Part shown: piece by piece, positions 51,414-63,431 of the stretch | How the letters are laid out: each line of letters starts with the position of its first letter | Numbering within the stretch: the stretch's first letter is position 1 | Assembly: GCF_052425735.1 (NCBI RefSeq) | Contig: NW_027558470.1 | Coordinates: forward strand, 1 to 64,000 | Direction: 5' to 3' | Origin: Oculina patagonica | Taxonomy: Eukaryota | DNA length: 64,000 bases | Translations under genes and position numbers: made by a program | The notes under the pieces: generated by a model | Database searches by the model: none | What the model was told of the DNA's origin: nothing | What the model saw: only the letters and a program-made list of their open reading frames with translations

Positions 51414-52365
51414 TCCCTGGCCAAAACTGAAGTTTCACAAGATTGAAGCTAGGTACAAACAATACCAAGAATTAATACAAGCATCCAAATTTAAGGTTGA
51501 ATTCACATCATGCAGCAAAAGAAGGGTTCAATACCTTCAGCAGGTACTGCACCGACTTGCACTGTCACACTGTACAATCTGAAACACTCCCCCAAGATAT
51601 ATGTGATATGGAAAACAAATAGAGCCTTCCAAATATGGGAGGAATACACCCACACTCTCATTAGTCATTGGTTGTTGATGAGAAAAGTTTTTTTGGGCTT
51701 GCTGTGTAATATTCTATTTCCATTCCTGAATACCTGTCCTGTCCCAAATATTCAAATTCTTCATGTTAGAAACAAAAAAGAAAATTTAAGACATAAAAAC
51801 TGACAAACTGGCAAACATGTATAATAGCTAATGTCCATTTCTTAGCTAATCATTTTTCTTATCAACTCTCAGAAAATACATATATAGTTCCATGAATCTA
51901 CTAACTCATGGAATACAAAAGTGCTGTATCCTTTTTCTTGAATTCCGTGGTGAAGGTGGAATTTTAAAAACATGCTGTCCCCACAATTAAACAGGAAGAG
52001 ACACTAATGGGTTGCTATTATATGCCGCAAGTTAAATATATGTACAACATTGTATAACTTCCATTCAGTAACATAAAAGGCTTTAATTTAACATGTAATG
52101 GCTTGTGTTTCCACTGCTGTTTATTTACTATTTAAACTCCAAGTTAAGAGTAACTATACAAAGCTAATGACTTCATTAAACTTCCTCATAATTGCTTTAC
52201 ACAAATGCTTTCGAGTCTCCACTATAAAATGCACACAAATGACTCACTAATTGAAAGGTCAGTGGTTAATTTATAACAATTCCTACAAACAGCCTTGAGG
52301 CTATAATTCCATTTTTGCCAATAAAAGCCGCTACATCTTAAAAATAAAGTATACTGTAGCTGGTC

Positions 52366-52813
52366 AGTAGTAGTATAGGTTCCAAATTAGCCGGATTTTA
52401 ATTTATTCAAAATGGCCGCCCATACAAACCCTTGTAAAATGTGAGAAGTGAACGTGAGGTGCTAAGGAGGAGTCCAAAAACGAAAATGAGGTGCACATAC
52501 CCCGGTTTTAATTTATTCAAAATGTCCGCCCCATACAAACCCTTGTAAAATTTGAGAAGTGAGCGTGAGGTGCTAAAGAGGAGTCAATAAACGAAAATGA
52601 GGTGCACAGTGCATGTCATGTGAATAGAGAAAAATGATTTTTTTGAACTGCATTGTTAATTTTTCGTAATGACTTGGCACACAAGCATTTTTTGAGGTGC
52701 ACAGTTCATGTCATGTGAATAGAGTAAAATGATTTTTTTTTGAACTGTGTAATGAAACTTGCCACAAAAGCATTTTTTATGGCAGCCGCGCGCAGCGCGA
52801 CTGCTGCTGCCTC

Positions 52814-52845
<32 letters not shown>

Positions 52846-52850
52846 CGGCG
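52366..52850. repeat. Polinton terminal (TIR) region with internal direct repeats
   Basis: (AGT)3 end; ~110-bp pair 52391-52497 / 52502-52607; ~55-bp pair 52598-52650 / 52692-52748; (GCC)n at 52815-52845. Confidence 0.75.
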
Positions 52851-52942
52851 GTTAGCTATGTTCGCATTGGCAAAAACCACCACAAGACCATTTTCAGTTG
52901 TTAAAAATACATTTTATTGATTAACAAACAAAGTTTTTTTTT

Positions 52943-53497
52943 TTACAAACAAAGTTCAGTCTCCCAATCTTCGTCCGGTGTGACTGTCCATTGCCAAAAC
53001 GCCTGACATTCCACCATGGCACAGTGTCCCAACGCTTGTACTTTGTGCTGTCCGCAGTCTTGAATGATAGAGATATTGTCTAATTTTTCAAATTTGGGGC
53101 ATCCAAAATGTTCCAAGTTGATGGCAGGTAGATCCAATTCTCGTAATAAATTCTTTTCCACGTGGCCACCTTTATATGCTACTAGGAATCGTTCTAGGGT
53201 GCGGCTTTGTTGGTACACTTCTAATACGTTGCCTTTCAGGTCCTCTAGAGAACGAGCATTTTCCCGGGGATCTTCTTCAAACGGTAACCCATGAATGCGA
53301 TGGTAAACGTACTTGGCCGTTTGTCTGTCAAGTGGGGTTAATGCTTTCCAGCGAAAGGGTTGTTGGTAATGGTTGACTCCAACATCACCTCTCCAGGTGG
53401 TCCAACCGAGTTCACGTGGATAAAATTTTTTGTCGATAAAATAGCCCTCTAAATCGATTATGAGGCACACGTTTTGAAGAGCACCTTTACGCTGCAT
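52943..53497 (-). CDS. DEDDh-like 3'-5' exonuclease with Zn-binding E/C/H/C (arenavirus NP / Maelstrom-like)
   Basis: IIDLEG..FYPRELG, HGL, KGGHVEKNLL, CGQH, HCAMVEC; likely start MQRKG at 53497, downstream of a TATAAAA. Confidence 0.75.
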   Translation of the reverse strand: MQRKGALQNVCLIIDLEGYFIDKKFYPRELGWTTWRGDVGVNHYQQPFRWKALTPLDRQTAKYVYHRIHGLPFEEDPRENARSLEDLKGNVLEVYQQSRTLERFLVAYKGGHVEKNLLRELDLPAINLEHFGCPKFEKLDNISIIQDCGQHKVQALGHCAMVECQAFWQWTVTPDEDWETELCL

Positions 53498-53577
53498 CGT
53501 GATGTGTAGAATGAATGTCGATGACGAATGTGTTGCTTTTTTTTTATACTTTTTTGACAATGACTCGTTTACAAAAT

Positions 53578-54363
53578 TCACTCTTGAATCCAATTGCGAG
53601 GTTTCTGCCAAACACGGGGCTTAGAATAACCTTTTCCTCGCTGTCTAGGGTAGAGGTTTATGAGTTGTTGATACAATTTGTTGCGCCGACGTAGCGAATC
53701 TTCTCGAGCTTGGACGCGTTTCCTGTGCTCCTCTTCCTTGCCCATGATGAGTTGATTCAACCAAAAGGGTGGATCCGAATGGTTCAAAAACTCGTCTTGC
53801 TCCTTGATGGTTTGCACGTTGCCCTCCACGATCTGCCAATTTCGGTCGGCTTTCTTGATTTTTTCCTCGTCCTCCGTGCGGAGGGCTTGCTCCATCTCTT
53901 GCTTGGCCTGTTGCCTATACCATTCAAGATCCTTGTCCAATTTGTCGTAGTGGTCAAGCACTTCCTGAGGCGACCGGAGGTTGGCGTACCACATCGCAGG
54001 GATGATTTTTGATTTTTCTTCTTTCTCTGGAGGAGGAAGAGGAGGACCTGCTATTTTTTTCGTTGGGGCAATCCGTTTTAGGCTGTTGGGTTGAAGTCGT
54101 TGCAGTTGACGTTGTAGGTGAAAGTAATGGCTGCTGTCGACACCATCCCCTGGTAGGGATGCAGGCACGCCTTGTCCTTCGACCTGTTTCATGTCGTTCA
54201 TGAGTTTCCTCATGCGATCCACGTGAGGGGCATTGACCAATCGATCCACCACCAAGCGTCGTTGCCAAAATTGATCCATGTTGTCTTGGGCGACCTGACC
54301 TCCTGTTTGATCGCTTGAGGGTTTAGGGATCAAGATCATCTCTTGGGCATATTTTTCGCTCAT
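53578..54363 (-). CDS. Polinton hypothetical protein, 261 aa, coiled-coil
   Basis: Intact ORF, ATGA overlap with the upstream gene; QTGG and QRGKG motifs. Confidence 0.75.
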   Translation of the reverse strand: MSEKYAQEMILIPKPSSDQTGGQVAQDNMDQFWQRRLVVDRLVNAPHVDRMRKLMNDMKQVEGQGVPASLPGDGVDSSHYFHLQRQLQRLQPNSLKRIAPTKKIAGPPLPPPEKEEKSKIIPAMWYANLRSPQEVLDHYDKLDKDLEWYRQQAKQEMEQALRTEDEEKIKKADRNWQIVEGNVQTIKEQDEFLNHSDPPFWLNQLIMGKEEEHRKRVQAREDSLRRRNKLYQQLINLYPRQRGKGYSKPRVWQKPRNWIQE

Positions 54364-54941
54364 GTTTCCAAAGCTTTCAAACCAGCCCGCAGAAACGGGA
54401 GAAGACGTGCTCCCAAGGCAAGTAAGAGGGCTCGCCGTTCGTACAAAGGTGTGGTTAGTCCACTCAAACGTCTTATCTCTCTTATATGCTTTTTCAAGGG
54501 AAGTTTTATCTGGGACGGTATCGGGATCACACCATCGTACAAGTTGCGTATCACGTCGGTCAGGGCACGTAGTTGGTCATTGCTGGCTTCGTGAATTTCT
54601 CGTCGCCATGTGGCACCATCCCCACTAACCAAGTTGAGTAGAAAAGGTTGGTGAGCTGCCACGCGCCACGCACCACTGCCCGTTTGTTTCTTCTTTTTTG
54701 ATGTCACCACTCCGCCTAGCAGAGCACCCAGACCTGCCAAAGGTAGTAAGCCGGCAGCCAACAATCCCTTGGTACCCATTTTACGTTTGAGTTTTCCGTA
54801 GGCACTTCCTACTTTGTTGCCCGAGGAACGGGCTTTAGCAGGACGTGTAAACCCTCGATTAGCTCGCTTGACTGCTACCGATGAAGTGGAAAAGTAACGA
54901 TTGGTGGGAGTACGTCGGAAGGCTTGTAACGGAGGTGCCAT
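54360..54941 (-). CDS. Basic putative virion core/membrane-active protein, 193 aa
   Basis: K/R-rich N-terminus, hydrophobic GLLAAGLLPLAGLGALLGG, QTGSG, then a helical QLRALTDVIRNLYDGVIPI..LKKH..IRRL domain of a kind recalled from Polintons. Confidence 0.75.
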   Translation of the reverse strand: MAPPLQAFRRTPTNRYFSTSSVAVKRANRGFTRPAKARSSGNKVGSAYGKLKRKMGTKGLLAAGLLPLAGLGALLGGVVTSKKKKQTGSGAWRVAAHQPFLLNLVSGDGATWRREIHEASNDQLRALTDVIRNLYDGVIPIPSQIKLPLKKHIREIRRLSGLTTPLYERRALLLALGARLLPFLRAGLKALET

Positions 54942-54990
54942 GGTTCATTAATAAACCTTCCAGATGCAGCTTCTTTATATCCTTTTTTTC

Positions 54991-55377
54991 TCACTGCTGT
55001 AGACCAGAAAGCAGTGGTTTGAGCACCAGCGGAGCTAAGGCCATGCCTGCCATTGCAGCCAGAGGTCCCAATCCTCCCTGTTGTGATTTTTGTTTACAGC
55101 GTTTCATTTTCTTCCTGATTCCTCCACCTTTCTGTTTGGATCGTGGTATGCGAAGATAAGTGGACGGTGGTAAATGATTAGGCAAACCAATCATCTGCGA
55201 GTTGCCCGGTAAACTAAACTTTCCACCGCCTTGACCCGTCAAGCCTGGTACCATGCTGTTCAACACATTGCTAGCCATGTCGGTCACGATGGGAGCCAAC
55301 GAGAACATGGCTAGTTGCTGAGCAAAAGGGCCGAGCCCTCCTTCCTGACGTCGACGTTTTCGTCTTACAGCTGGCAT
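54991..55377 (-). CDS. Putative core precursor, 128 aa, four QxGG sites
   Basis: RRKRRRQEGG, QGGG, QKGG and QQGG separate basic and hydrophobic segments. Confidence 0.75.
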   Translation of the reverse strand: MPAVRRKRRRQEGGLGPFAQQLAMFSLAPIVTDMASNVLNSMVPGLTGQGGGKFSLPGNSQMIGLPNHLPPSTYLRIPRSKQKGGGIRKKMKRCKQKSQQGGLGPLAAMAGMALAPLVLKPLLSGLQQ

Positions 55378-55412
55378 CGTTGTGTTCTAAACTCGACACG
55401 CAACTCGGACTT

Positions 55413-55916
55413 TTATACCTTTTGCGACAAGAGCGTTCCCAACAAGGCTGTCGGTACTGCTGCCAACACGCCTCCTAGTGCTGCTGCTGTCCCGAGTTTG
55501 CCCGTTAAGGTGGTGGGGGTCAGTGTACGACGCACATTCCACATGGCTCTGTTGACACCTCGAGCCAGTTGTTGCGATCTCATATTGGCCAAGGCTCTAG
55601 AAGCTGCTCTTCGTCTTTGAGGATTGGTAGGATGACGAGCGCGGATGGCTCTCTGCATCTGAGCAATGCGTGACGGTGATGGTCGAGGTCCGGGGTAGAT
55701 GCCTCCCTTCTGTCCTCGCTTCCGTTGTCTTTTGGTTGCCAAAACGCTGCGTCGTCCAGTTGTCGCCTCGCTGGCATCTTGAATGCGAACGTCGTACTCG
55801 TCGCCTCGTAGCACGTAGTGAGTGCCTGGCATCCCCGCACCCCAAGGTGCTTGTAAAGAGCGAGGAGGACGTGGAAATGCGGAACGTCGAAAGGTGGGTA
55901 ACACAAGAGAATTCAT
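55413..55916 (-). CDS. Arg-rich putative core protein, 167 aa, hydrophobic C-terminus
   Basis: Intact ORF; QKGG; C-terminal LGTAAALGGVLAAVPTALLGTLL. Confidence 0.7.
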   Translation of the reverse strand: MNSLVLPTFRRSAFPRPPRSLQAPWGAGMPGTHYVLRGDEYDVRIQDASEATTGRRSVLATKRQRKRGQKGGIYPGPRPSPSRIAQMQRAIRARHPTNPQRRRAASRALANMRSQQLARGVNRAMWNVRRTLTPTTLTGKLGTAAALGGVLAAVPTALLGTLLSQKV

Positions 55917-55937
55917 TCCTTTTCTGGTCCTGTGTGG

Positions 55938-56633
55938 CTATGACACTCGGCTTTTTATCTTTTTTTCTAGCGGTTGTAGCACGGTGATAGGGTCAGCTTC
56001 ATCTAGCAAAATGTGGGTGCGAAACCTCAATGCTTCGTCAGTCCTGGGATGATGGTCAACCACCAGATACCCAAACGGTTTTTGGGTAGCTTTTTGGTAC
56101 AGTTGCCAAAAGGCTTTGCTATCCCCCAACCAGCGATCACCCAAGGCTTTGACGTATCTGGTATCGGCCGGGTTCTTGAAAAGGACCGTGTAATGGTAGT
56201 TGCGGTTTTGAGTGGCTTGTTCCCGTCCACCTGGATACAGATTTTGCGACAGCGTGATGGCAAACAAGTCTAGATGATGAGTACCCCGCGTTAACAACTG
56301 GGTGACTTGTGGGGACTTGGCAGATTCTTGCATCAAATCATCCAGGATCAACATGCCGGGTCGCTGCGTGGGAGGAAAGAGTTCTGAGATATCCTCGGGT
56401 AGACCTTGGTGAAAGTCCACTCCCAAGGCTTGGAAATGGTCAAAAATGGGTTGCCAGGTCGAGCCATGGCAGTACACGATTTTTTGGAAGTAGCACGGGC
56501 TACCATCTGCGAGTCGAAAATAGACCGGGGCATTGTGTACCAAGCGGTACAGCCAAGTCGTTTTCCCACTCAAAGAGGGACCCACAATCTGCATGTTGCC
56601 CGGAACCCGAAATCGCGGATCGTACGTCGACAT
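55938..56633 (-). CDS. A32/FtsK-like DNA packaging ATPase
   Basis: Walker A GPSLSGKT, Walker B LILDD, TRGTHH, LSQN, VLFKNP. Confidence 0.93.
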   Translation of the reverse strand: MSTYDPRFRVPGNMQIVGPSLSGKTTWLYRLVHNAPVYFRLADGSPCYFQKIVYCHGSTWQPIFDHFQALGVDFHQGLPEDISELFPPTQRPGMLILDDLMQESAKSPQVTQLLTRGTHHLDLFAITLSQNLYPGGREQATQNRNYHYTVLFKNPADTRYVKALGDRWLGDSKAFWQLYQKATQKPFGYLVVDHHPRTDEALRFRTHILLDEADPITVLQPLEKKIKSRVS

Positions 56634-56671
56634 GATGAACACACACACACTTTTTTTTTTTTTTCAACAGT

Positions 56672-57250
56672 TTAATTTATAACTTTTGTAACAGGTTTAC
56701 AACAGTCATAACAACGATGCCTTTGGCGTTCAATACAAATCTGACTATGTCCATGTGCATCAAACAAGTGTCCACCTCTATGCTTTTCAGATGACAACGA
56801 AGGAAATAGGTCATGCATCCGTTGCACGACGGCCGTGTCATTGTAAAGTAAGTTGGTGGGTGAAAAATACTGCACAATCGTTCTCAAAGGCGTGCCGCGG
56901 CATCGATGGTAAAGGTAGTACAAGGTGTGATCTCCGCACACATCAGTGGTCCATTGCTGAATGGGGCGAGGTGTTTGTTCAAAGTCATCAAAGCAACGCC
57001 AACGAGCATCATACGTGTTGGGTGTGATGGCATAACTGTCGAAGAATTCACCGCGACCAGGTGCCCACCAAAAGAGGCCGACCCAATGCTGTCCAGGCAA
57101 GTCGATGGGATCTGTATTGGCAATAGCACATTGCGGATAGGGCGCTTGACAAGGCACTTCGTCGGCACCGTACACGTCTGTGAAAAACCCCCGAATGACG
57201 GGATCGCACTGGCACGCTCTTCTTAAGGACTCTGTATCATGCATTCTCAC
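56672..57250 (-). CDS. Adenain-like cysteine maturation protease
   Basis: NTD..GQHW, FFDSY, Q...VCG catalytic H/D/Q/C set. Confidence 0.93.
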   Translation of the reverse strand: MRMHDTESLRRACQCDPVIRGFFTDVYGADEVPCQAPYPQCAIANTDPIDLPGQHWVGLFWWAPGRGEFFDSYAITPNTYDARWRCFDDFEQTPRPIQQWTTDVCGDHTLYYLYHRCRGTPLRTIVQYFSPTNLLYNDTAVVQRMHDLFPSLSSEKHRGGHLFDAHGHSQICIERQRHRCYDCCKPVTKVIN

Positions 57251-58617
57251 AAGGGAATTGGACCTTGCACTGTACCACGATTGTCGACTTGCAGCAGACT
57301 TTCATCTGTATTATAGAAAAACAGAGCTTGGAGGGTAGGATTTCCACTACTGAAGGTCAGTCGGACATTGACCAGCATACGTAACAAGGGGGTGCTGGAT
57401 TCTCCTCCATCTTGGACTGCCGTCAGATCAAAGGGGACCATGAAGTAACCTTGGTCAAAGGTGTCTGGATTCAGCAGGTAAGCATCTCGTTTGCGTTTGC
57501 CCGAAGCATTCATCAGCAAATCGAAGATCTCGTACTTATCTTGCAGAGATAAGCTGGCTTTGGGAACGGGTACGCCATTGGCAGTGCATTCCACTTGGAT
57601 TCCATTCTGGGGAGTGAAATCGAATGGATTCTTTCCAAAGTGTCCTTGATAACGTTCGTCGTCCACCAACACCAACCAAAACAACCGGGGCGATCGTCCT
57701 CGGAACACGTCGTTGATGTCTATTTGCGTTTGATTGGCTGTCAACTGATAGTTGTCACAACGCATCCGTCGGAAGGGGAAGGTCATCGGGTTGACGACAG
57801 TGGTCTTCTCCACTTGTTCTTCCATGTACTGCATGATGTCTTTCACAGGTACGCGATAGAACACGCGTACAAAGGATTTGTTCACCATCACTTCAAAGGA
57901 CACTTTGTCAGAGGAGGTGGCTGCAGTTCCATCACCATTGTCTTTGTACTTCTTGGCCATCAGGGTAAACTCCGGGTTGTTGAATTCAATGTCAAACTCC
58001 ACTTTGGTGTTGGGAGGTACATTCTGGTCGACTTGAGTGAAATTGCTGGGCATGGGACAGACGTTGAACTCATATTCACCCGTGGTATTCACCATGACTC
58101 GTTGACGGGAGATACCACCGGCATTCATCTTGGCTGCTTCGTCTAGTTTTCCTCCCCACTTGTCCATTTGACCAGCCACATCCCGGTACCACCCTTGACG
58201 CTTCAGCTTGCTCTTTTCATCCCAGGGATCAGACTCCAACAGGGTTCGAAAATACTCTCGATAGGCTAAATTTACCCCTGAGGCAGATTCCGTTTCGGCA
58301 TTATTGACTTTGCAACGCACTTGTCGAATGCAACTGTAGCCAAAGTTATTCACTGGTCCCACGATGAGGTTGGACGTATTGTTATGATAGGCTAGGGCTT
58401 TGGTGTTACCCTCTTTAAACTTCACTCGCAGATGCAGTTCCATTTCTCGAGGACAAAAAGGATAGGGGCGATCGTCGATGCGAAACTGCAATGGGGTGGA
58501 CGAATGCGTCAAGGGTTTGATGTCCTCAAACTGCCACTTGTACTCGGTGGCATCGATCTTCCGTTGCGGTCGGTAGTCGTACTGACCTTTGTCGGCCTGT
58601 AAACTCAAGGACTCCAT
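57247..58617 (-). CDS. Major capsid protein (double jelly-roll, hexon-like)
   Basis: 456 aa, beta-rich; PVNNFGYSCIRQV, AYREYF..LL, GWY.D, NPF.F, YFMVPFDLT motifs; next to the protease. Confidence 0.85.
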   Translation of the reverse strand: MESLSLQADKGQYDYRPQRKIDATEYKWQFEDIKPLTHSSTPLQFRIDDRPYPFCPREMELHLRVKFKEGNTKALAYHNNTSNLIVGPVNNFGYSCIRQVRCKVNNAETESASGVNLAYREYFRTLLESDPWDEKSKLKRQGWYRDVAGQMDKWGGKLDEAAKMNAGGISRQRVMVNTTGEYEFNVCPMPSNFTQVDQNVPPNTKVEFDIEFNNPEFTLMAKKYKDNGDGTAATSSDKVSFEVMVNKSFVRVFYRVPVKDIMQYMEEQVEKTTVVNPMTFPFRRMRCDNYQLTANQTQIDINDVFRGRSPRLFWLVLVDDERYQGHFGKNPFDFTPQNGIQVECTANGVPVPKASLSLQDKYEIFDLLMNASGKRKRDAYLLNPDTFDQGYFMVPFDLTAVQDGGESSTPLLRMLVNVRLTFSSGNPTLQALFFYNTDESLLQVDNRGTVQGPIPL

Positions 58618-58671
58618 GGCGAGGAACTGAACTCAAATGGCACAAGTGTGTTGCCTTTATATCTTTTTTTC

Positions 58672-59445
58672 CTAAGGCAAGCCTTGAAAACAGTGCTGTC
58701 CCGGTCGTCGACGTCGACCCATGCCTACTTGTGGACCAGGAATGATTTCTGGCAACACACCAACGTTACGTCCACCTTGTCGGCGAAACAGTCGATTCAA
58801 TGTCGTGGAGGCACCCGTGATGACTTTGGGACGCTTTCTCTTTCCACTTCCTTTTTGATTCTTGAGTAAGCTAGGCATCAGTCTCAACAGCGAGAGGAAC
58901 CCTCCTTCCTGATAGGGTTCAGTGCCGGATCGATAGGTATCATTGCCAGTTCCACCCAGTTGCTTGACTAAACTTGGAATCAACCCCAAGAGAGGAAGAA
59001 TACCGCCTTGTTGACCTGCAACTTTATCCCCCAATGTGTCCAGGGCTTGACCTACAAATGGAGACACGAGTTCCATGGCCTTTTTTTGCGCCAGATCGGA
59101 TTGGATGGCTTTGCCGGCTCCTAACCTGGCCGCCTTGGCACCTGCCTTACCCAGACCTTTGATCATTTGCCAGGCCACTTCGTCAAAGCCATACCCTCCT
59201 TCTTGCTGTCGCTTCTTCTTCTTTTTCTTGACGGGTTGTTCGGTGTCTTGGCAGTAGGACTGACGAAATCGCTTGGCAGCCTTACAGGCCACTCCTTTGC
59301 CCAAAGAGGTGGCCTCTTGACCTGCCAGGGCCCACAGCGGTGACCACCCCCCTTCTTGATACGCAGGGGTGCCTTGGTCGTAGAAAGTACCTCCTCCTCC
59401 CACTTGCACCCACTGAGATTGGGCGAATCGTTTCTTGACGGGCAT
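58672..59445 (-). CDS. Putative polyprotein core/membrane-lytic precursor, 257 aa, eight QxGG/QxGxG sites
   Basis: QVGG, QEGG x3, QQGG, QLGG, QKGSG and QVGMG flank amphipathic and basic peptides. Confidence 0.75.
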   Translation of the reverse strand: MPVKKRFAQSQWVQVGGGGTFYDQGTPAYQEGGWSPLWALAGQEATSLGKGVACKAAKRFRQSYCQDTEQPVKKKKKKRQQEGGYGFDEVAWQMIKGLGKAGAKAARLGAGKAIQSDLAQKKAMELVSPFVGQALDTLGDKVAGQQGGILPLLGLIPSLVKQLGGTGNDTYRSGTEPYQEGGFLSLLRLMPSLLKNQKGSGKRKRPKVITGASTTLNRLFRRQGGRNVGVLPEIIPGPQVGMGRRRRPGQHCFQGLP

Positions 59446-61742
59446 TATGGAATCTCTCTCTGGCGGAAATACAAGGTCGCTGTCACCACACCACCTTGGA
59501 ATGGTATGGGGCGACCTTGGTTGTCCCTTATATCGATTTCGATGTCGCGAATCTGGTACTGACTCAGTCGGTAAAAAAGCAAGTGTGGAATGAACACGTC
59601 TTCCACCCTCTGTTTGTCCGTGTTTACACCGTGGGTCAAGAGGACTTTGGCCATTTGGGAGCCCACGTAGACCGGTTCGCTGATGTTGCAGTGCACGTAC
59701 ATGTTCTGGAAGGAGTACTTAGAGATGGTGCTCCACACACTCGCTTGGCTGTGTTTGGCCATGGTGTGACTTCGAGTGATCTCCACTTCGGTGGGTTTCC
59801 CGTCAACATCGTGCTTGGTGATTTCCACAATGGGACGATGGGTGTCGGAATGAAAATAGAAGGGTACAGTCCAGGAGTCAAAATCCAAGTAGCCCAAGAC
59901 GCGGGCCAGCCAGGCTGGCAGATACACGGAGAAGTCGGCACTGGGAAAGGTCCACACGTTAAATCCTCGTTCGTCCAAGGTGACTTTTAGCCCACCCAAA
60001 TCGTGCTTCTGAGGCGCATTGGCTTCCATGGCTTGCATCCAACCTTCCACCACATCTTGCACGGTGACATAGGTGCCGGCACGTATAAACATCCTCACAT
60101 CCGGGTGATCCTGGTCGTAGTGGATGCGAAGACCCACTTGCCGATTCAACACGTTGCGCCACGTGTGGGGTAACAGCAGCTGAAACAGCCCCACTTCCCA
60201 CGTTTCGTCCAAGGACCACCTCTCTGGCAGACGCACTCGGAAGTGGGATGGTGAGTTGTCAGGAAACAGGTCCAGTTGCGCATTGCTTTCTAAGGTCACC
60301 CGTCGTCCCCCTTGAAATCGCATGGTGGGTGATAAAGCAGGGCCTTTGTGAAAGTACAACAAGAGTCCAACGAGACCCGTGTAAAATGGAATGCCTAGGT
60401 TGTCGCTGTTTCTTAAATTGACTCGGAGCTGGTTCAGGTGACGAGTCGGAGCAGCCAACGGTCGAAAATCCACGTGCTGTGGGTGATATTCACACGTCTT
60501 GCCATACATCTGACTTTGAAACGGGACCAAGGCCAATGTGTGTCGCTGGTGCTCTCCTGTCATGCTCAATCCCACGATGTCCACTTCCACAAAACACTTG
60601 CTCAAATCTGTATTGGACAAGCTGACCAGCTCCCCGATAGGTGACTCGGGTTCGGGTAGTAGCAGACTTTCACCGTCCTTGAGAACGTGGGTTCCCATCA
60701 GCTCCTCCAAACCGTGATCAAAACGCACGTAGCCCTTGGGTTGTACTTGCAGCAACCATCGACCAGGTTCTAAGTTGAATATGGTCACTGGAAATTCTTG
60801 TATGGCATAGGGGGTCACTGCATTGTTGCTTTTTTGCCACGCCCCCACGTCAAACAGGATTCTCTTGCCAAACATGTAGCGGCGTCGTTTGGGGTGAATG
60901 TCCAATGAAATCCTCACACCTCTCAATGGGTCCTTTCCCTTGTCGAGGAGTCGAGTCACCTCAAAGCGGGCTCGAGTGTTGTTGCCTGTATTGGCGTAAA
61001 CAGTGTTGTGGGGTGGAATTCGCAACGCTCCACGATGATCGGGATCCATTTCTAGGAATCCCATGAGCAGGGCCAACGATTCACCCAGATCATACTGACC
61101 TTCAGCCCATAGGTCGATGGCATAATGTGTCCTGGGACGATGAGGACTGTCCTTGAGTGCCCAAACATACTTGACACGGTGGGGCCCCATCAGCGTCCTG
61201 GTAGCTTGGTTGAGATAACGTTTGACGTCCAAAAAGGTGGTGGGTAAGATCTTGTCGGTTGCCAACCAGGCATCCACCACATCACGACGAAAATAATCCA
61301 ATTTGGGATTGGTGGGAAAGTTTCTGTCGAACGTTTTGGGAGAATCCATGTGCAATTGCCCGTAATAATGCGTGCCTCCAGATAAGGTCGGGAAGACGTA
61401 CAAGCCCAGTCGTTGAACTAAATCTTGTAGCACGTGCTTGACATGTGTAAACTGTTGGTGACGCGATAGTTGAATGGATTGCGATGGAAGACTTGTCTCC
61501 ACACGCCCCACTTGGCAGTGGTAATCGGCAGGCAATTTCAGCACCGCGTTGCCAAAGGAGTGTGTATAATACATACTGACTAGAGCCACTTGCCAGTCTT
61601 GGGACAAGGTCAAGGGAATTTCCAACCCCTGTCGAAAGGCGGAGCGTACTGTCGTCACGTCAGGTTCTAGAGGGTGAGTCCCTTGATCCCCACTGTTCAA
61701 ATACATGATGAAATCATTGTCGCGTTCCCATGGCTTACTCAT
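59445..61742 (-). CDS. Minor capsid (penton) protein, tandem two-domain form, 765 aa
   Basis: Two copies each of L.S...W.V.L....(S/T)(F/W).N and L..+.+.+R...G.PF..G.V...LYF. Confidence 0.8.
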   Translation of the reverse strand: MSKPWERDNDFIMYLNSGDQGTHPLEPDVTTVRSAFRQGLEIPLTLSQDWQVALVSMYYTHSFGNAVLKLPADYHCQVGRVETSLPSQSIQLSRHQQFTHVKHVLQDLVQRLGLYVFPTLSGGTHYYGQLHMDSPKTFDRNFPTNPKLDYFRRDVVDAWLATDKILPTTFLDVKRYLNQATRTLMGPHRVKYVWALKDSPHRPRTHYAIDLWAEGQYDLGESLALLMGFLEMDPDHRGALRIPPHNTVYANTGNNTRARFEVTRLLDKGKDPLRGVRISLDIHPKRRRYMFGKRILFDVGAWQKSNNAVTPYAIQEFPVTIFNLEPGRWLLQVQPKGYVRFDHGLEELMGTHVLKDGESLLLPEPESPIGELVSLSNTDLSKCFVEVDIVGLSMTGEHQRHTLALVPFQSQMYGKTCEYHPQHVDFRPLAAPTRHLNQLRVNLRNSDNLGIPFYTGLVGLLLYFHKGPALSPTMRFQGGRRVTLESNAQLDLFPDNSPSHFRVRLPERWSLDETWEVGLFQLLLPHTWRNVLNRQVGLRIHYDQDHPDVRMFIRAGTYVTVQDVVEGWMQAMEANAPQKHDLGGLKVTLDERGFNVWTFPSADFSVYLPAWLARVLGYLDFDSWTVPFYFHSDTHRPIVEITKHDVDGKPTEVEITRSHTMAKHSQASVWSTISKYSFQNMYVHCNISEPVYVGSQMAKVLLTHGVNTDKQRVEDVFIPHLLFYRLSQYQIRDIEIDIRDNQGRPIPFQGGVVTATLYFRQREIP

Positions 61743-62853
61743 ACTGTTTCAAGTCTTTGCGTGAAATCCACGTCTGATAATCAGGTGCCACTCCTTGCCA
61801 GTTCACTAACACTTGTCGAGTGGGTCCACGTCCTTTGTATTTAAGCTTTTTGGTCACGCGCCATCGATTGGGTAAACCTCGAACCTTTTGTAGTTGAGGT
61901 TCGTAGAAACGACCTTTCACCTTCCGCCCTTGCCAATCTTCCAACGTGTAATAATTCACGCCATCTGCCACTTGTCGCTTGCGATCCACCACGGTGTACA
62001 CGGCTCGTGACCACACCCCTTTGGCACTCTTAAAACCGAACGCACCTCGTCTCTTGTCCTTCCCTAACAACTTGGAGGTTCTGACGAAATCCCCGGGTCG
62101 AAACTTGTAACGGTTCAATGGGATTGTAGGTTTGTACAACCGTTGCCACACCACTTCGGCATTGTAGTCGTTCACGTCGGCAGGTGCCATTCGAATGCTT
62201 GAATGAATGCGTTGGTTGTACCTGTCCACTAGTTCGGGTAAGGCGTCTAAGTACTTGGGCGTGTTGTGCGCAGTCATGTACTTGTAGGTGAGTTCTTTTA
62301 GGGAACGGTTAAAACGCTCGACCACGGAAGCTTTGGGTTCTCCCTGCGTGGAATAGTGGTGGATGTCGTACTCGTCCAACAAACGTTTTACGTGTTTGTT
62401 GTAAAATTCTTTACCTTGATCGGTGTGCAAATTTACGGGTCGCCGTCCCTGGTTGTGTTCCAGCAAGTACCGCAATGCATCTCGCACGGCTGTCCCGCGT
62501 TTACTTTTCAAACCCACCACCCAGGCATACTTGCTCAAGACGTCGATGACGGTAAGGAGGTAACGCGTTCGCTTGTTAGCTGCCACCAATTTCCGATCCT
62601 GCATTTCGACTAAATCGGCTTGCCAGGTATGATCGAGGGACGGTCCCACCACGGTCTTGCTGCGGGGAAAATCTTCGCGTCGCGGTCGGTGTAAGGTAAA
62701 GGAGGGTTCACCTTGCAAATACGTTTGAGCAGCTTGTCGAGACACGCCTAAGGATTTAGCGACATTGATCAATTCCTGCGCATTCCCACTCAGCGCGTAA
62801 GGGCTGTCTTCGTCTAAATACAAGGCATCTAGCGTGCTCTGTTTCTTCGCCAT
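61735..62853 (-). CDS. Retroviral-like (rve) integrase with C-terminal chromodomain
   Basis: WQADL, IDVLSKYAW, HTDQGKEF, VVERFNR (D,D,E); VLVNWQGVAPDYQTWI chromo-like tail; likely start MAKKQ at 62853. Confidence 0.95.
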   Translation of the reverse strand: MAKKQSTLDALYLDEDSPYALSGNAQELINVAKSLGVSRQAAQTYLQGEPSFTLHRPRREDFPRSKTVVGPSLDHTWQADLVEMQDRKLVAANKRTRYLLTVIDVLSKYAWVVGLKSKRGTAVRDALRYLLEHNQGRRPVNLHTDQGKEFYNKHVKRLLDEYDIHHYSTQGEPKASVVERFNRSLKELTYKYMTAHNTPKYLDALPELVDRYNQRIHSSIRMAPADVNDYNAEVVWQRLYKPTIPLNRYKFRPGDFVRTSKLLGKDKRRGAFGFKSAKGVWSRAVYTVVDRKRQVADGVNYYTLEDWQGRKVKGRFYEPQLQKVRGLPNRWRVTKKLKYKGRGPTRQVLVNWQGVAPDYQTWISRKDLKQYE

Positions 62854-62939
62854 GCTAACACACAGATAAACACTGCTTACAAACATTCATTCTATTTATT
62901 GACTTTGTTCTCTCAAGTTTTCATTACAGTTTTCCTTTG

Positions 62940-63431
62940 TTATGGAGAGTCAGGGAAGGCCACAAAGGGTCCGAGGTTGCGGATCGATTCTTCCAGAGTA
63001 GCAGAGGTGTCTTTTTTCTTGCGTCCACGTTTGGTTGGTTCATTATCTGCAGCCTCTGAGACGGGTCTCTTGCTGGCCTTGTTCTTTGTCTGGCTATCGT
63101 TCTCCTCCAGAGAATTTCCCAATCCAGCTCGTTTCCATTCATAGTTCATCTCTTCCCAGGCTTGTTGGATTTCTATGACTTTTTGCGGCAAAGATCCAAT
63201 GGCACTCAACAATCGAAGCTTGGTTTTCATGTATAACTGGGGTGAACTTTCCACCACCCTGGACACTAGGGTGTTGGACAGTTGGGTACTGATGTAAGCC
63301 AACTGCTCCAGCAACTGACGGATGGTTCGGAATTGTTCTTCCACACTCATGATGTGCACTTGACGATGACTTCCGTAAAATGAAAAACGTTTCGATGTGT
63401 ACGCGCTATTATACATTTTTGGAATGCACAC
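62940..63431 (-). CDS. Polinton hypothetical protein (helical N-terminus, KRGRKKK NLS-like)
   Basis: Intact ORF between integrase and pPolB; true start uncertain. Confidence 0.6.
   Translation of the reverse strand: MCIPKMYNSAYTSKRFSFYGSHRQVHIMSVEEQFRTIRQLLEQLAYISTQLSNTLVSRVVESSPQLYMKTKLRLLSAIGSLPQKVIEIQQAWEEMNYEWKRAGLGNSLEENDSQTKNKASKRPVSEAADNEPTKRGRKKKDTSATLEESIRNLGPFVAFPDSP

Follow-up and report, generated by a model that had tools for sequence, protein, structure and literature searches.

The window analysed here, a 64,000-nucleotide stretch of Oculina patagonica DNA, harbours at 52943..53497 (minus strand) a gene for a stand-alone protein of 184 residues. Its ORF, alignment, predicted fold and structural register point to a DEDDh-fold exonuclease of the DEEEh variant with an E-C-H-C tetrad, and the gene likely corresponds to the 'MAEL' type of adintovirus accessory genes. 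We propose, with a probability of roughly 0.55, that the protein acts by two-metal catalysis as a 3'-5' exoribonuclease, has a structural zinc and eliminates RNAs that serve in host defence. This kind of gene is not new as a label; described here are its intact predicted active site and a relative in an RNA virus, a link that the literature searched did not contain.

The exonuclease gene and its Polinton

The gene is an uninterrupted frame of 184 codons. Its product contains the motifs D15-L-E17-G, P-R-E29, H69-G-L, K109-G-G-H-V-E114-K-N-L-L, C148-G-Q-H151 and H158-C159-A-M-V-E163-C, which include all those listed in a previous, sequence-only reading of this DNA. A pattern derived from these motifs, and drawn after the protein had been seen, had 0 matches in 100,000 shuffles of the protein. 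The motif set is thus not a product of chance, and its conservation, described below, is the better evidence.

A TATAAA sequence is found 51 bases 5' of the ATG (53543..53548, minus strand) and an AATAAA poly(A)-type signal 3' of the stop codon (52913..52918, minus strand); both recur in three other full copies of the same Polinton family. A database gene model (P0169), in which the upstream ORF is fused to the exonuclease ORF and D15 is lost, was discarded as a likely prediction artefact, because the exonuclease gene has its own TATA, its own ATG and stand-alone homologs. A sigma-70 promoter scan, which is ill-suited to a eukaryotic gene, gave counts at chance level. Two poly(A) runs gave 24 reads over 11 kb of the element, with none on the exonuclease gene, and two small-RNA runs gave none on the element; both results are uninformative on expression either way. 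A GCC/CGC run is present at 52795-52850, between the terminal repeat and the 3' end of the gene.

The GC content of the window rises from ~36% to 50% from 52 kb onward. The left terminal inverted repeat of the Polinton (52366..52608) begins with AGTAGTAGT, and its 243 bases are identical to inverted copies beyond the window. The exonuclease gene is located ~580 bases inside this left end, at 52366. Upstream of it and on the same strand are genes for an A32/FtsK-like packaging ATPase (55938..56633, minus strand; Pox_A32 E 0.004, under the cut-off), a presumed adenain-type protease (56672..57244, minus strand, so assigned from position and motifs, with 0 Pfam matches) and what we take, from its size and position, to be the major capsid protein (57247..58617, minus strand), for which a Pfam search gave nothing informative. 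An rve integrase with a C-terminal chromodomain is also encoded there (61735..62886, minus strand; Pfam rve E 2.7e-14, Chromo E 3.6e-4). A 765-residue ORF (59445..61742, minus strand) probably represents two tandem minor-capsid (penton) units. A protein-primed PolB with N-terminal C2H2 fingers, which carries ExoI/II/III-like motifs of its own, is encoded just beyond the window. The Maelstrom-like ORF therefore resides within a Polinton/adintovirus that has PolB, an rve integrase, an ATPase and terminal repeats, as the sequence-only reading had claimed, and the upstream element genes, PolB, and the left end with its 243-base inverted repeat establish that it is the end gene of this element.

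The main genes, from exonuclease to PolB, are on one strand (window 52943-63416 and L025:3-3959). Vertebrate Mavericks, in contrast, have two opposed modules (PMC8097293, partial text), and the second Polinton family of the Oculina genome is also unlike the one-strand layout. At the right end of the element (L025:6116-10000 and L026:1-1469) the terminal repeat occurs in several copies, full or partial, and the flank consists of a tandem repeat of 1.4 kb with a further match at window 52174-52365, which may reflect a complex end or an effect of assembly. Window 54360-55916 and 58672-59445 contain several small ORFs that are basic and rich in Gly and in which Q-x-G-G motifs recur; presumably they resemble the protease-cleaved core proteins of adintoviruses. 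A copy of the 765-residue penton-like ORF on contig C12 is longer than a single 10-kb locus shows and is found in two pieces, L016 and L017.

We searched the genome for further copies of the exonuclease gene. The search gave 44 matches (46 candidates scored), which were merged into 39 loci. Of these, 36 are at most 20 kb from a Polinton ATPase locus, and the 123 ATPase loci cover <1% of the genome. The latter were typed from 148 and 133 search rows, leaving out duplicate and adjacent-fragment rows. The exonuclease gene is patchily distributed, and its position shifts among Polinton families. It is present in 25/26 loci of the largest family, and for the more distant ATPase loci it was found within 20 kb in at least 7/84, in this search seeded by one protein with 46 candidates scored. 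In the largest family, the second of the genome, it is located between the integrase and PolB genes, beside a gene for a GRF zinc-finger protein. It is close to PolB in family B and at many metagenome loci, whereas in the window element it is at the far end from PolB. The GRF gene is directly upstream of the exonuclease gene in the largest family (L020:4265-5176), and GRF gene homologs occur at 20 among the top 80 out of 141 metagenome loci. GRF zinc fingers bind single-stranded DNA in APE2, NEIL3 and TOP3A, and in ERI2 such a finger shares one chain with a DEDDh domain.

Purifying selection acts on the exonuclease copies. In the window's family, 10 synonymous and 5 nonsynonymous changes separate two copies (dS 0.088, dN 0.012, dN/dS ~0.13), and in the other family 11 synonymous and 7 nonsynonymous variants were counted among eleven copies. 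Compared with neutral site counts, the binomial probabilities are ~3e-4 and ~4e-4, respectively, which are rough values given that the copies are related. On another contig an identical copy of the gene is surrounded by different flanks, which points to a recent spread of the window's Polinton.

Predicted fold, structural register and conservation

The 184-residue protein was modelled with a pLDDT of 94.2 and a pTM of 0.90 as a DEDDh (DnaQ-like, RNase H-like) exonuclease fold that starts at residue 10. Foldseek placed RNase AS first and the arenavirus nucleoprotein (NP) exonucleases next. The VIA structure search returned the Staphylococcus aureus DinG exonuclease (Z 11.5-11.9), 3'hExo/ERI1 (11.1), Lassa NP (10.3-11.5), Escherichia coli epsilon (10.8), LCMV NP (10.7), the TREX1 homolog Plex9.1 and ExoX (10.3-10.5) and three Maelstrom structures (10.3, 10.3 and 9.0). 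Judging by their titles and from general knowledge, we take the top 31 VIA rows (Z 8.7-11.5) to be DnaQ-like domains. In a 50-row structure comparison, the arenavirus rows have 16-19% identity to the window protein and the other rows (27/50) 8-16%, with 8-10% for the DinG exonuclease rows. The sequence-only reading had singled out arenavirus NP and Maelstrom as the structures to compare with. Both were indeed matched, but DNA exonucleases were not beaten: DinG at 11.5-11.9 is within 1 Z of Lassa NP at 10.8-11.5, and epsilon scores 10.8, which amounts to a tie. As far as the model goes, fold alone does not name the substrate, because the scores of RNases, DNases, NP and Maelstrom are tied (the Maelstrom value of 9.0 aside).

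The structural alignments also provided a residue register, which was read from the offsets of the aligned ranges and assumes no gaps near the range ends. All 16 Lassa NP rows begin at an offset that places D15/E17/G18 on D389/E391/G392, and 13/16 end at one that places H158/C159/E163 on H528/C529/D533; we take C529 to be a zinc ligand of Lassa NP. In both Bombyx Maelstrom rows, C159 coincides with C302, a zinc ligand, and E163 with R306, and E. coli epsilon D12/E14/D167 are in register with D15/E17/E163. The catalytic numbering of Lassa NP is that of PMC3429428 and the Bombyx Maelstrom numbering that of PMC4408791 (partial texts of both). On this basis the ExoI motif D15-L-E17 (53447..53455, minus strand) would correspond to Lassa NP D389/E391 and epsilon D12/E14 (PMC3429428, PMC4408791, partial texts). 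The motif H158-C159-x-x-x-E163 (53009..53026, minus strand) would provide the general-base His, the last zinc Cys and the ExoIII acid, in register with Lassa H528/C529/D533 and Bombyx C302/R306. E163 thus matches Lassa D533 and epsilon D167, in agreement with the glutamate previously proposed at ExoIII. The glutamate likewise proposed at ExoII is E114, in K109-G-G-H-V-E114 (53156..53173, minus strand); it is conserved in 122/131 rows and was placed as the probable ExoII acid by motif spacing only. For the predicted zinc site, E29 (53411..53413, minus strand) would be the first ligand, as suggested by its spacing of 14 residues past D15, and C148-x-x-H151 (53045..53056, minus strand) would supply the next two, as their conservation suggests (124/125 and 120/123).

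The family to which this protein belongs is large, with 681 clusters at 50% identity that pass an E-value of 0.001. Its nearest named relatives are in stony corals, namely a Desmophyllum pertusum protein (77%) and an Oculina patagonica gene model (99%). For conservation we used an alignment (A2) of 131 out of 167 proteins picked for coverage, with column counts given among the rows that have a residue in that column. The catalytic columns are well conserved (D15, 110/118; D/E at 17, 111/120; E114, 122/131; H158, 108/121; E163, 100/122), as are the zinc columns (E29, 120/126; C148, 124/125; H151, 120/123; C159, 118/122). Among the 106 complete rows, i.e. those with residues at all nine key columns, the catalytic set is kept in 86, the E-C-H-C set in 100 and both in 84. 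The active-site pattern is DDEEH in 44/106 complete rows and DEEEH in 41/106, and the window protein, with D15/E17/E114/E163/H158, is of the DEEEh type. The catalytic residues are lost in 20/106 rows, 16 of which retain the zinc set, so that, to judge from their sequences, some family members work without catalysis. The model with its pLDDT of 94, the structure matches, the register and this conservation together bear out what the sequence-only reading had put forward, namely a DEDDh fold that resembles arenavirus NP and Maelstrom, E-C-H-C site included.

Named sequence families were not informative. At E-values of up to 1, Pfam had nothing for P0001, and nothing meaningful turned up for the 20 rows of alignment A1; Maelstrom (PF13017) was not among the 25 families listed, out of 46, for the 131 A2 rows. 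Sequence searches of the PDB (phmmer and profile) found no named family and no arenavirus NP match. In metagenomes, a core Polinton gene accompanies the exonuclease gene at 31 of the best 80 of 141 loci, and at 27/32 among those of at least 5 kb. One locus carries tandem divergent paralogs of the exonuclease gene (L086:37-1306), and P0031 is a two-domain protein whose second copy is apparently devoid of catalytic motifs.

Relatives in arenaviruses, the Maelstrom family and other viruses

The window protein resembles the exonuclease domain of arenavirus NP (Lassa, PF17290) in fold (Z 10.3-11.5, 140-144 residues aligned, rmsd 3.0-3.7, identity 16-19%), in catalytic register, in the Gly after ExoI, the His-Gly motif and the His-Cys-x-x-x-acid motif, and in the ECHC pattern. 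It differs from it as a stand-alone protein of 184 residues without the N-terminal nucleocapsid domain, in its DNA-element host and in its Glu at both ExoII and ExoIII, and it has no sequence-level Pfam or PDB match. Tyr429 of NP is required for processive digestion of dsRNA (PMC3429428, partial text). The corresponding position, as tentatively mapped via the His-Gly motif, is Arg in the window protein, Tyr/Phe in 12/109 rows and His in 22/109. The spacing from H151 to C159, which is 8 in the window protein and 6-11 in 100/116 rows, is too short for the basic arm of NP (514-526). With the stacking Tyr and the long basic loop missing, and fold scores that tie with those of DNA exonucleases, a strict specificity for dsRNA is not supported.

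Likeness to the MAEL domain of Maelstrom (PF13017) consists of the fold (Z 9.0-10.3, 159-167 residues aligned) and the ECHC tetrad. Spacings are also close, with D15-E29 at 14 and H151-C159 at 8 in the window protein and 15 (D122-E137) and 9 for their Bombyx Maelstrom equivalents, and Maelstrom is the nearest named Atlas cluster by language-model features (0.89, a lead only). The predicted zinc tetrad E29/C148/H151/C159 is intact in 100/106 rows, with C159 equivalent to Bombyx C302 by register. Of the Maelstrom signature EHHCHC (PMC2628886, partial text), E29, H69, C148, H151 and C159 are present in the window protein, while the second conserved His was not identified (H112, 61/130). The window protein has no HMG box, is shorter, has no Pfam match and shares 9-11% identity with metazoan MAEL structures. 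Metazoan Maelstrom lacks the catalytic acids that the window protein keeps, and binds RNA without DEDD residues (PMC4408791, partial text). The catalytic and zinc sets are both kept in the active Entamoeba protein EhMael, as in the window protein. In the host genome a single type of Maelstrom-like exon was found, in which the ExoI acids are apparently absent, by eye; a search of these exons with the A2 profile gave no hit (best E 0.34). Two near-identical exons of this type, L027 and L028, are 13.6 Mb apart on contig C8. In summary, the window protein is built like both Maelstrom and arenavirus NP and is a member of neither proper: the missing Pfam match and HMG box set it apart from Maelstrom, and the missing core domain from the arenavirus NP family.

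A search among longer proteins yielded 1 match in 5,512 candidates. This protein of 1749 residues (P0178), encoded on a 7,966-nt contig, has Pfam matches to RNA-dependent RNA polymerase (RdRp) at 1280-1588 (E 3.8e-17), and its residues 184-365 form an exonuclease domain with 29% identity to the window protein and a profile E of 9e-10. It retains D189, D191, E215, KGGFE, CxxH and HCxxxE, with the pattern D-D-E-E-h. It is represented by a single contig and sits on a long branch, and a search of named families with it was dominated by the RdRp part and thus uninformative on the exonuclease domain. Besides these two domains, P0178 has an acidic, low-complexity linker, and it is possibly related to the RNA-virus family f.0181. 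Mutz et al. described a DEEEh exonuclease at the polyprotein N-terminus in f.0181, called the variant unreported and judged proofreading unlikely (PMC11796362, partial text). That exonuclease shares with the window protein the DEEEh pattern and RNase AS as top structural neighbour, and P0178 has a comparable layout, with its exonuclease near the replicase N-terminus, which makes it a look-alike by layout only. In contrast, the pattern of P0178 is D-D-E-E-h, and the available part of PMC11796362 makes no link to Polintons, Maelstrom or ECHC ('maelstrom', 0 occurrences).

Further relatives were found in DNA viruses. A 496-kb viral contig encodes a 1022-residue protein (L030:7676-10744) in which ~770 low-complexity residues precede an exonuclease domain with all motifs kept and long loop insertions; a single-sequence fold of this large-virus domain was set aside (pLDDT 33). 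In BFVD, the third match is a protein of Drosophila-associated adintovirus 2 (E 7e-9, TM 0.69/0.75), and four proteins of the two ichnoviruses GfV and AsIV were matched by structure only (E 7e-8 to 7e-5, identity 13-16%). The packaged genomes of polydnaviruses are not replicated in the caterpillar (PMC7843510, partial text); hence, we take their genes to be host-facing. Another metagenome homolog is found in a compact, intronless gene cluster (L081:1043-7563) that probably belongs to another DNA virus. The cluster contains a TRAF-like gene complete with RING, TRAF fingers and MATH, a RING-like gene and a paralog pair, with no Polinton core gene detected. A 48-row tree of the family was unsettled (bootstrap correlation 0.906), with P0178 and P0212 on long branches, and we therefore claim no direction of transfer.

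Proposed function and alternatives

The ECHC zinc site is common to arenavirus NP and Maelstrom and absent in the DNA-phage proofreading domains compared with them (PMC7968707, partial text), and the ECHC proteins that have been solved or assayed act on RNA (PMC4408791, PMC3429428, partial texts). By analogy, an RNA substrate is likely for the window exonuclease, since characterized ECHC proteins are RNases or RNA binders and an RNA-virus replicase has the domain fused to it; such a virus offers the enzyme no viral DNA as a substrate. Against RNA stand the fold scores of the DinG exonuclease, epsilon, ExoX and the TREX1 homolog (Z 10.3-11.9), as the fold does not part RNases from DNases, and the GRF zinc-finger neighbour upstream of the exonuclease gene in the second Polinton family. 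A host-facing role is suggested by the patchy presence of the gene, its mobility among unrelated viruses and the exonuclease-like motifs that PolB itself carries.

We thus favour an exoribonuclease directed at host defence. As a Polinton accessory gene, it would code for an active, zinc-stabilized 3'-5' exonuclease of the Maelstrom/arenavirus-NP type. D15, E17, E114 and E163 would hold two Mg/Mn ions, H158 would activate water, E29, C148, H151 and C159 would bind structural Zn, and K109 may contact the substrate backbone, like Q462 of NP. The enzyme would degrade its substrate, probably RNA (single-stranded, small-RNA or duplex), from the 3' end, and RNA-based host defences against the element (RNAi or piRNA silencing, or dsRNA sensing) would thereby be blunted.

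Foremost among the alternatives, although unlikely, is that the protein mimics Maelstrom: it would bind RNA or the Piwi/GTSF1/Maelstrom machinery and compete with host Maelstrom, with catalysis secondary. The language-model proximity (0.89, a lead only), the spacings of 14 and 8 against 15 and 9 in Bombyx, the 16/106 rows with a zinc set but without catalytic residues, and the RNA binding of metazoan Maelstrom without DEDD residues are all consistent with such a role. However, the catalytic set is complete in the window copy and in 86/106 rows, the protein has no HMG box, no Pfam Maelstrom match and only 9-11% identity to Maelstrom structures, and the domain is present in an RNA virus as well.

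A DNA exonuclease, which would trim viral DNA ends or, in a TREX1-like manner, clear cytosolic DNA and so evade DNA sensing, comes second and is also improbable. The ssDNA exonuclease domain of DinG tops the VIA search (Z 11.5-11.9), Plex9.1 and ExoX follow at 10.3-10.5, the family is mostly found in DNA elements (36/39 loci within 20 kb of a Polinton ATPase), and one Polinton family provides the GRF neighbour. Yet these DNases have 8-12% identity to the window protein against 16-20% for NP, and we know of no ECHC tetrad in DNases of the DinG, Plex9.1 or ExoX type. Moreover, the RNA-virus fusion in P0178 argues for RNA, and most cellular DnaQ-like domains have no zinc finger (PMC7968707, partial text).

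We give somewhat less credence still to a housekeeping or shut-off RNase that trims the 3' ends of viral transcripts or has host mRNA or poly(A) as a general target, and that is not specifically tied to silencing or sensing. It would suit the top Foldseek match, RNase AS, which is a poly(A)-specific exoribonuclease, the Z of 11.1 for 3'hExo/ERI1 and the missing duplex-binding features of NP, but many Polinton families of the Oculina genome do without the gene (found within 20 kb at 7/84 of the more distant ATPase loci, a lower bound) and the closest ECHC relatives both act at the host-defence interface. Finally, a stand-alone proofreading subunit for the Polinton DNA polymerase is very improbable: epsilon (Z 10.8) has D12/E14/D167 in register and the gene is close to PolB in family B and at many metagenome loci, but PolB of the window element carries exonuclease-like motifs itself, the gene is patchily distributed and, in this element, located at the end away from PolB, and an RNA virus whose contig is <8 kb has the domain too.

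Genes of this kind have been labelled before. Starrett et al. (2021) marked 'MAEL' genes on four adintovirus maps (Supplementary Fig. S2 of PMC8502044, partial text), which, from the text layer of that figure, appear to be arthropod maps. In the available main text 'mael' has 0 occurrences, and the label comes with neither residues nor function. These genes are likewise small Maelstrom-like ORFs in animal Polintons/adintoviruses; they likely belong to the family of the window exonuclease, being matched by label and setting rather than by sequence. In the literature searched we found neither a functional study nor a paper that connects the DEEEh domain of RNA viruses with the Polinton gene; two preprints (10.1101/2025.02.07.637071 and 10.64898/2026.07.28.741253) may already describe the gene, and the figure supplements of PMC8502044, PMC11796362 (Fig. 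S14) and PMC11131425 (Fig. S10) may bear on novelty. No description of the gene was found in the available parts of PMC11131425, PMC10748475, PMC11071308, PMC8097293 and the preprint 10.1101/2024.03.25.586562.

A broader proposal, which we hold tentatively and consider rather doubtful as a whole, is that the Polinton 'MAEL' genes represent one widespread lineage of active viral exoribonucleases (D-D/E-E-E-h plus ECHC), linked by sequence across Polintons, one large DNA virus and the replicase of an RNA virus, and by structure to polydnavirus cargo. Such enzymes might be general enzymatic suppressors of RNAi/piRNA silencing, and might constitute the missing viral link between the protist Maelstrom nucleases and the arenavirus NP exonuclease.

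The activity of the window protein is easy to test, because the protein is small, single-domain and confidently modelled. As of 2021, no zinc-finger exonucleases had been reported in dsDNA viruses (PMC7968707, partial text). If our reading is true, an arenavirus-type zinc exonuclease would be placed in dsDNA viruses and tied to the DEEEh enzymes of small RNA viruses. If its activity is as proposed, a transposon-like virus would be armed with a nuclease of its own against the small-RNA silencing of transposons, and this nuclease would share its scaffold with a host component of that silencing system.
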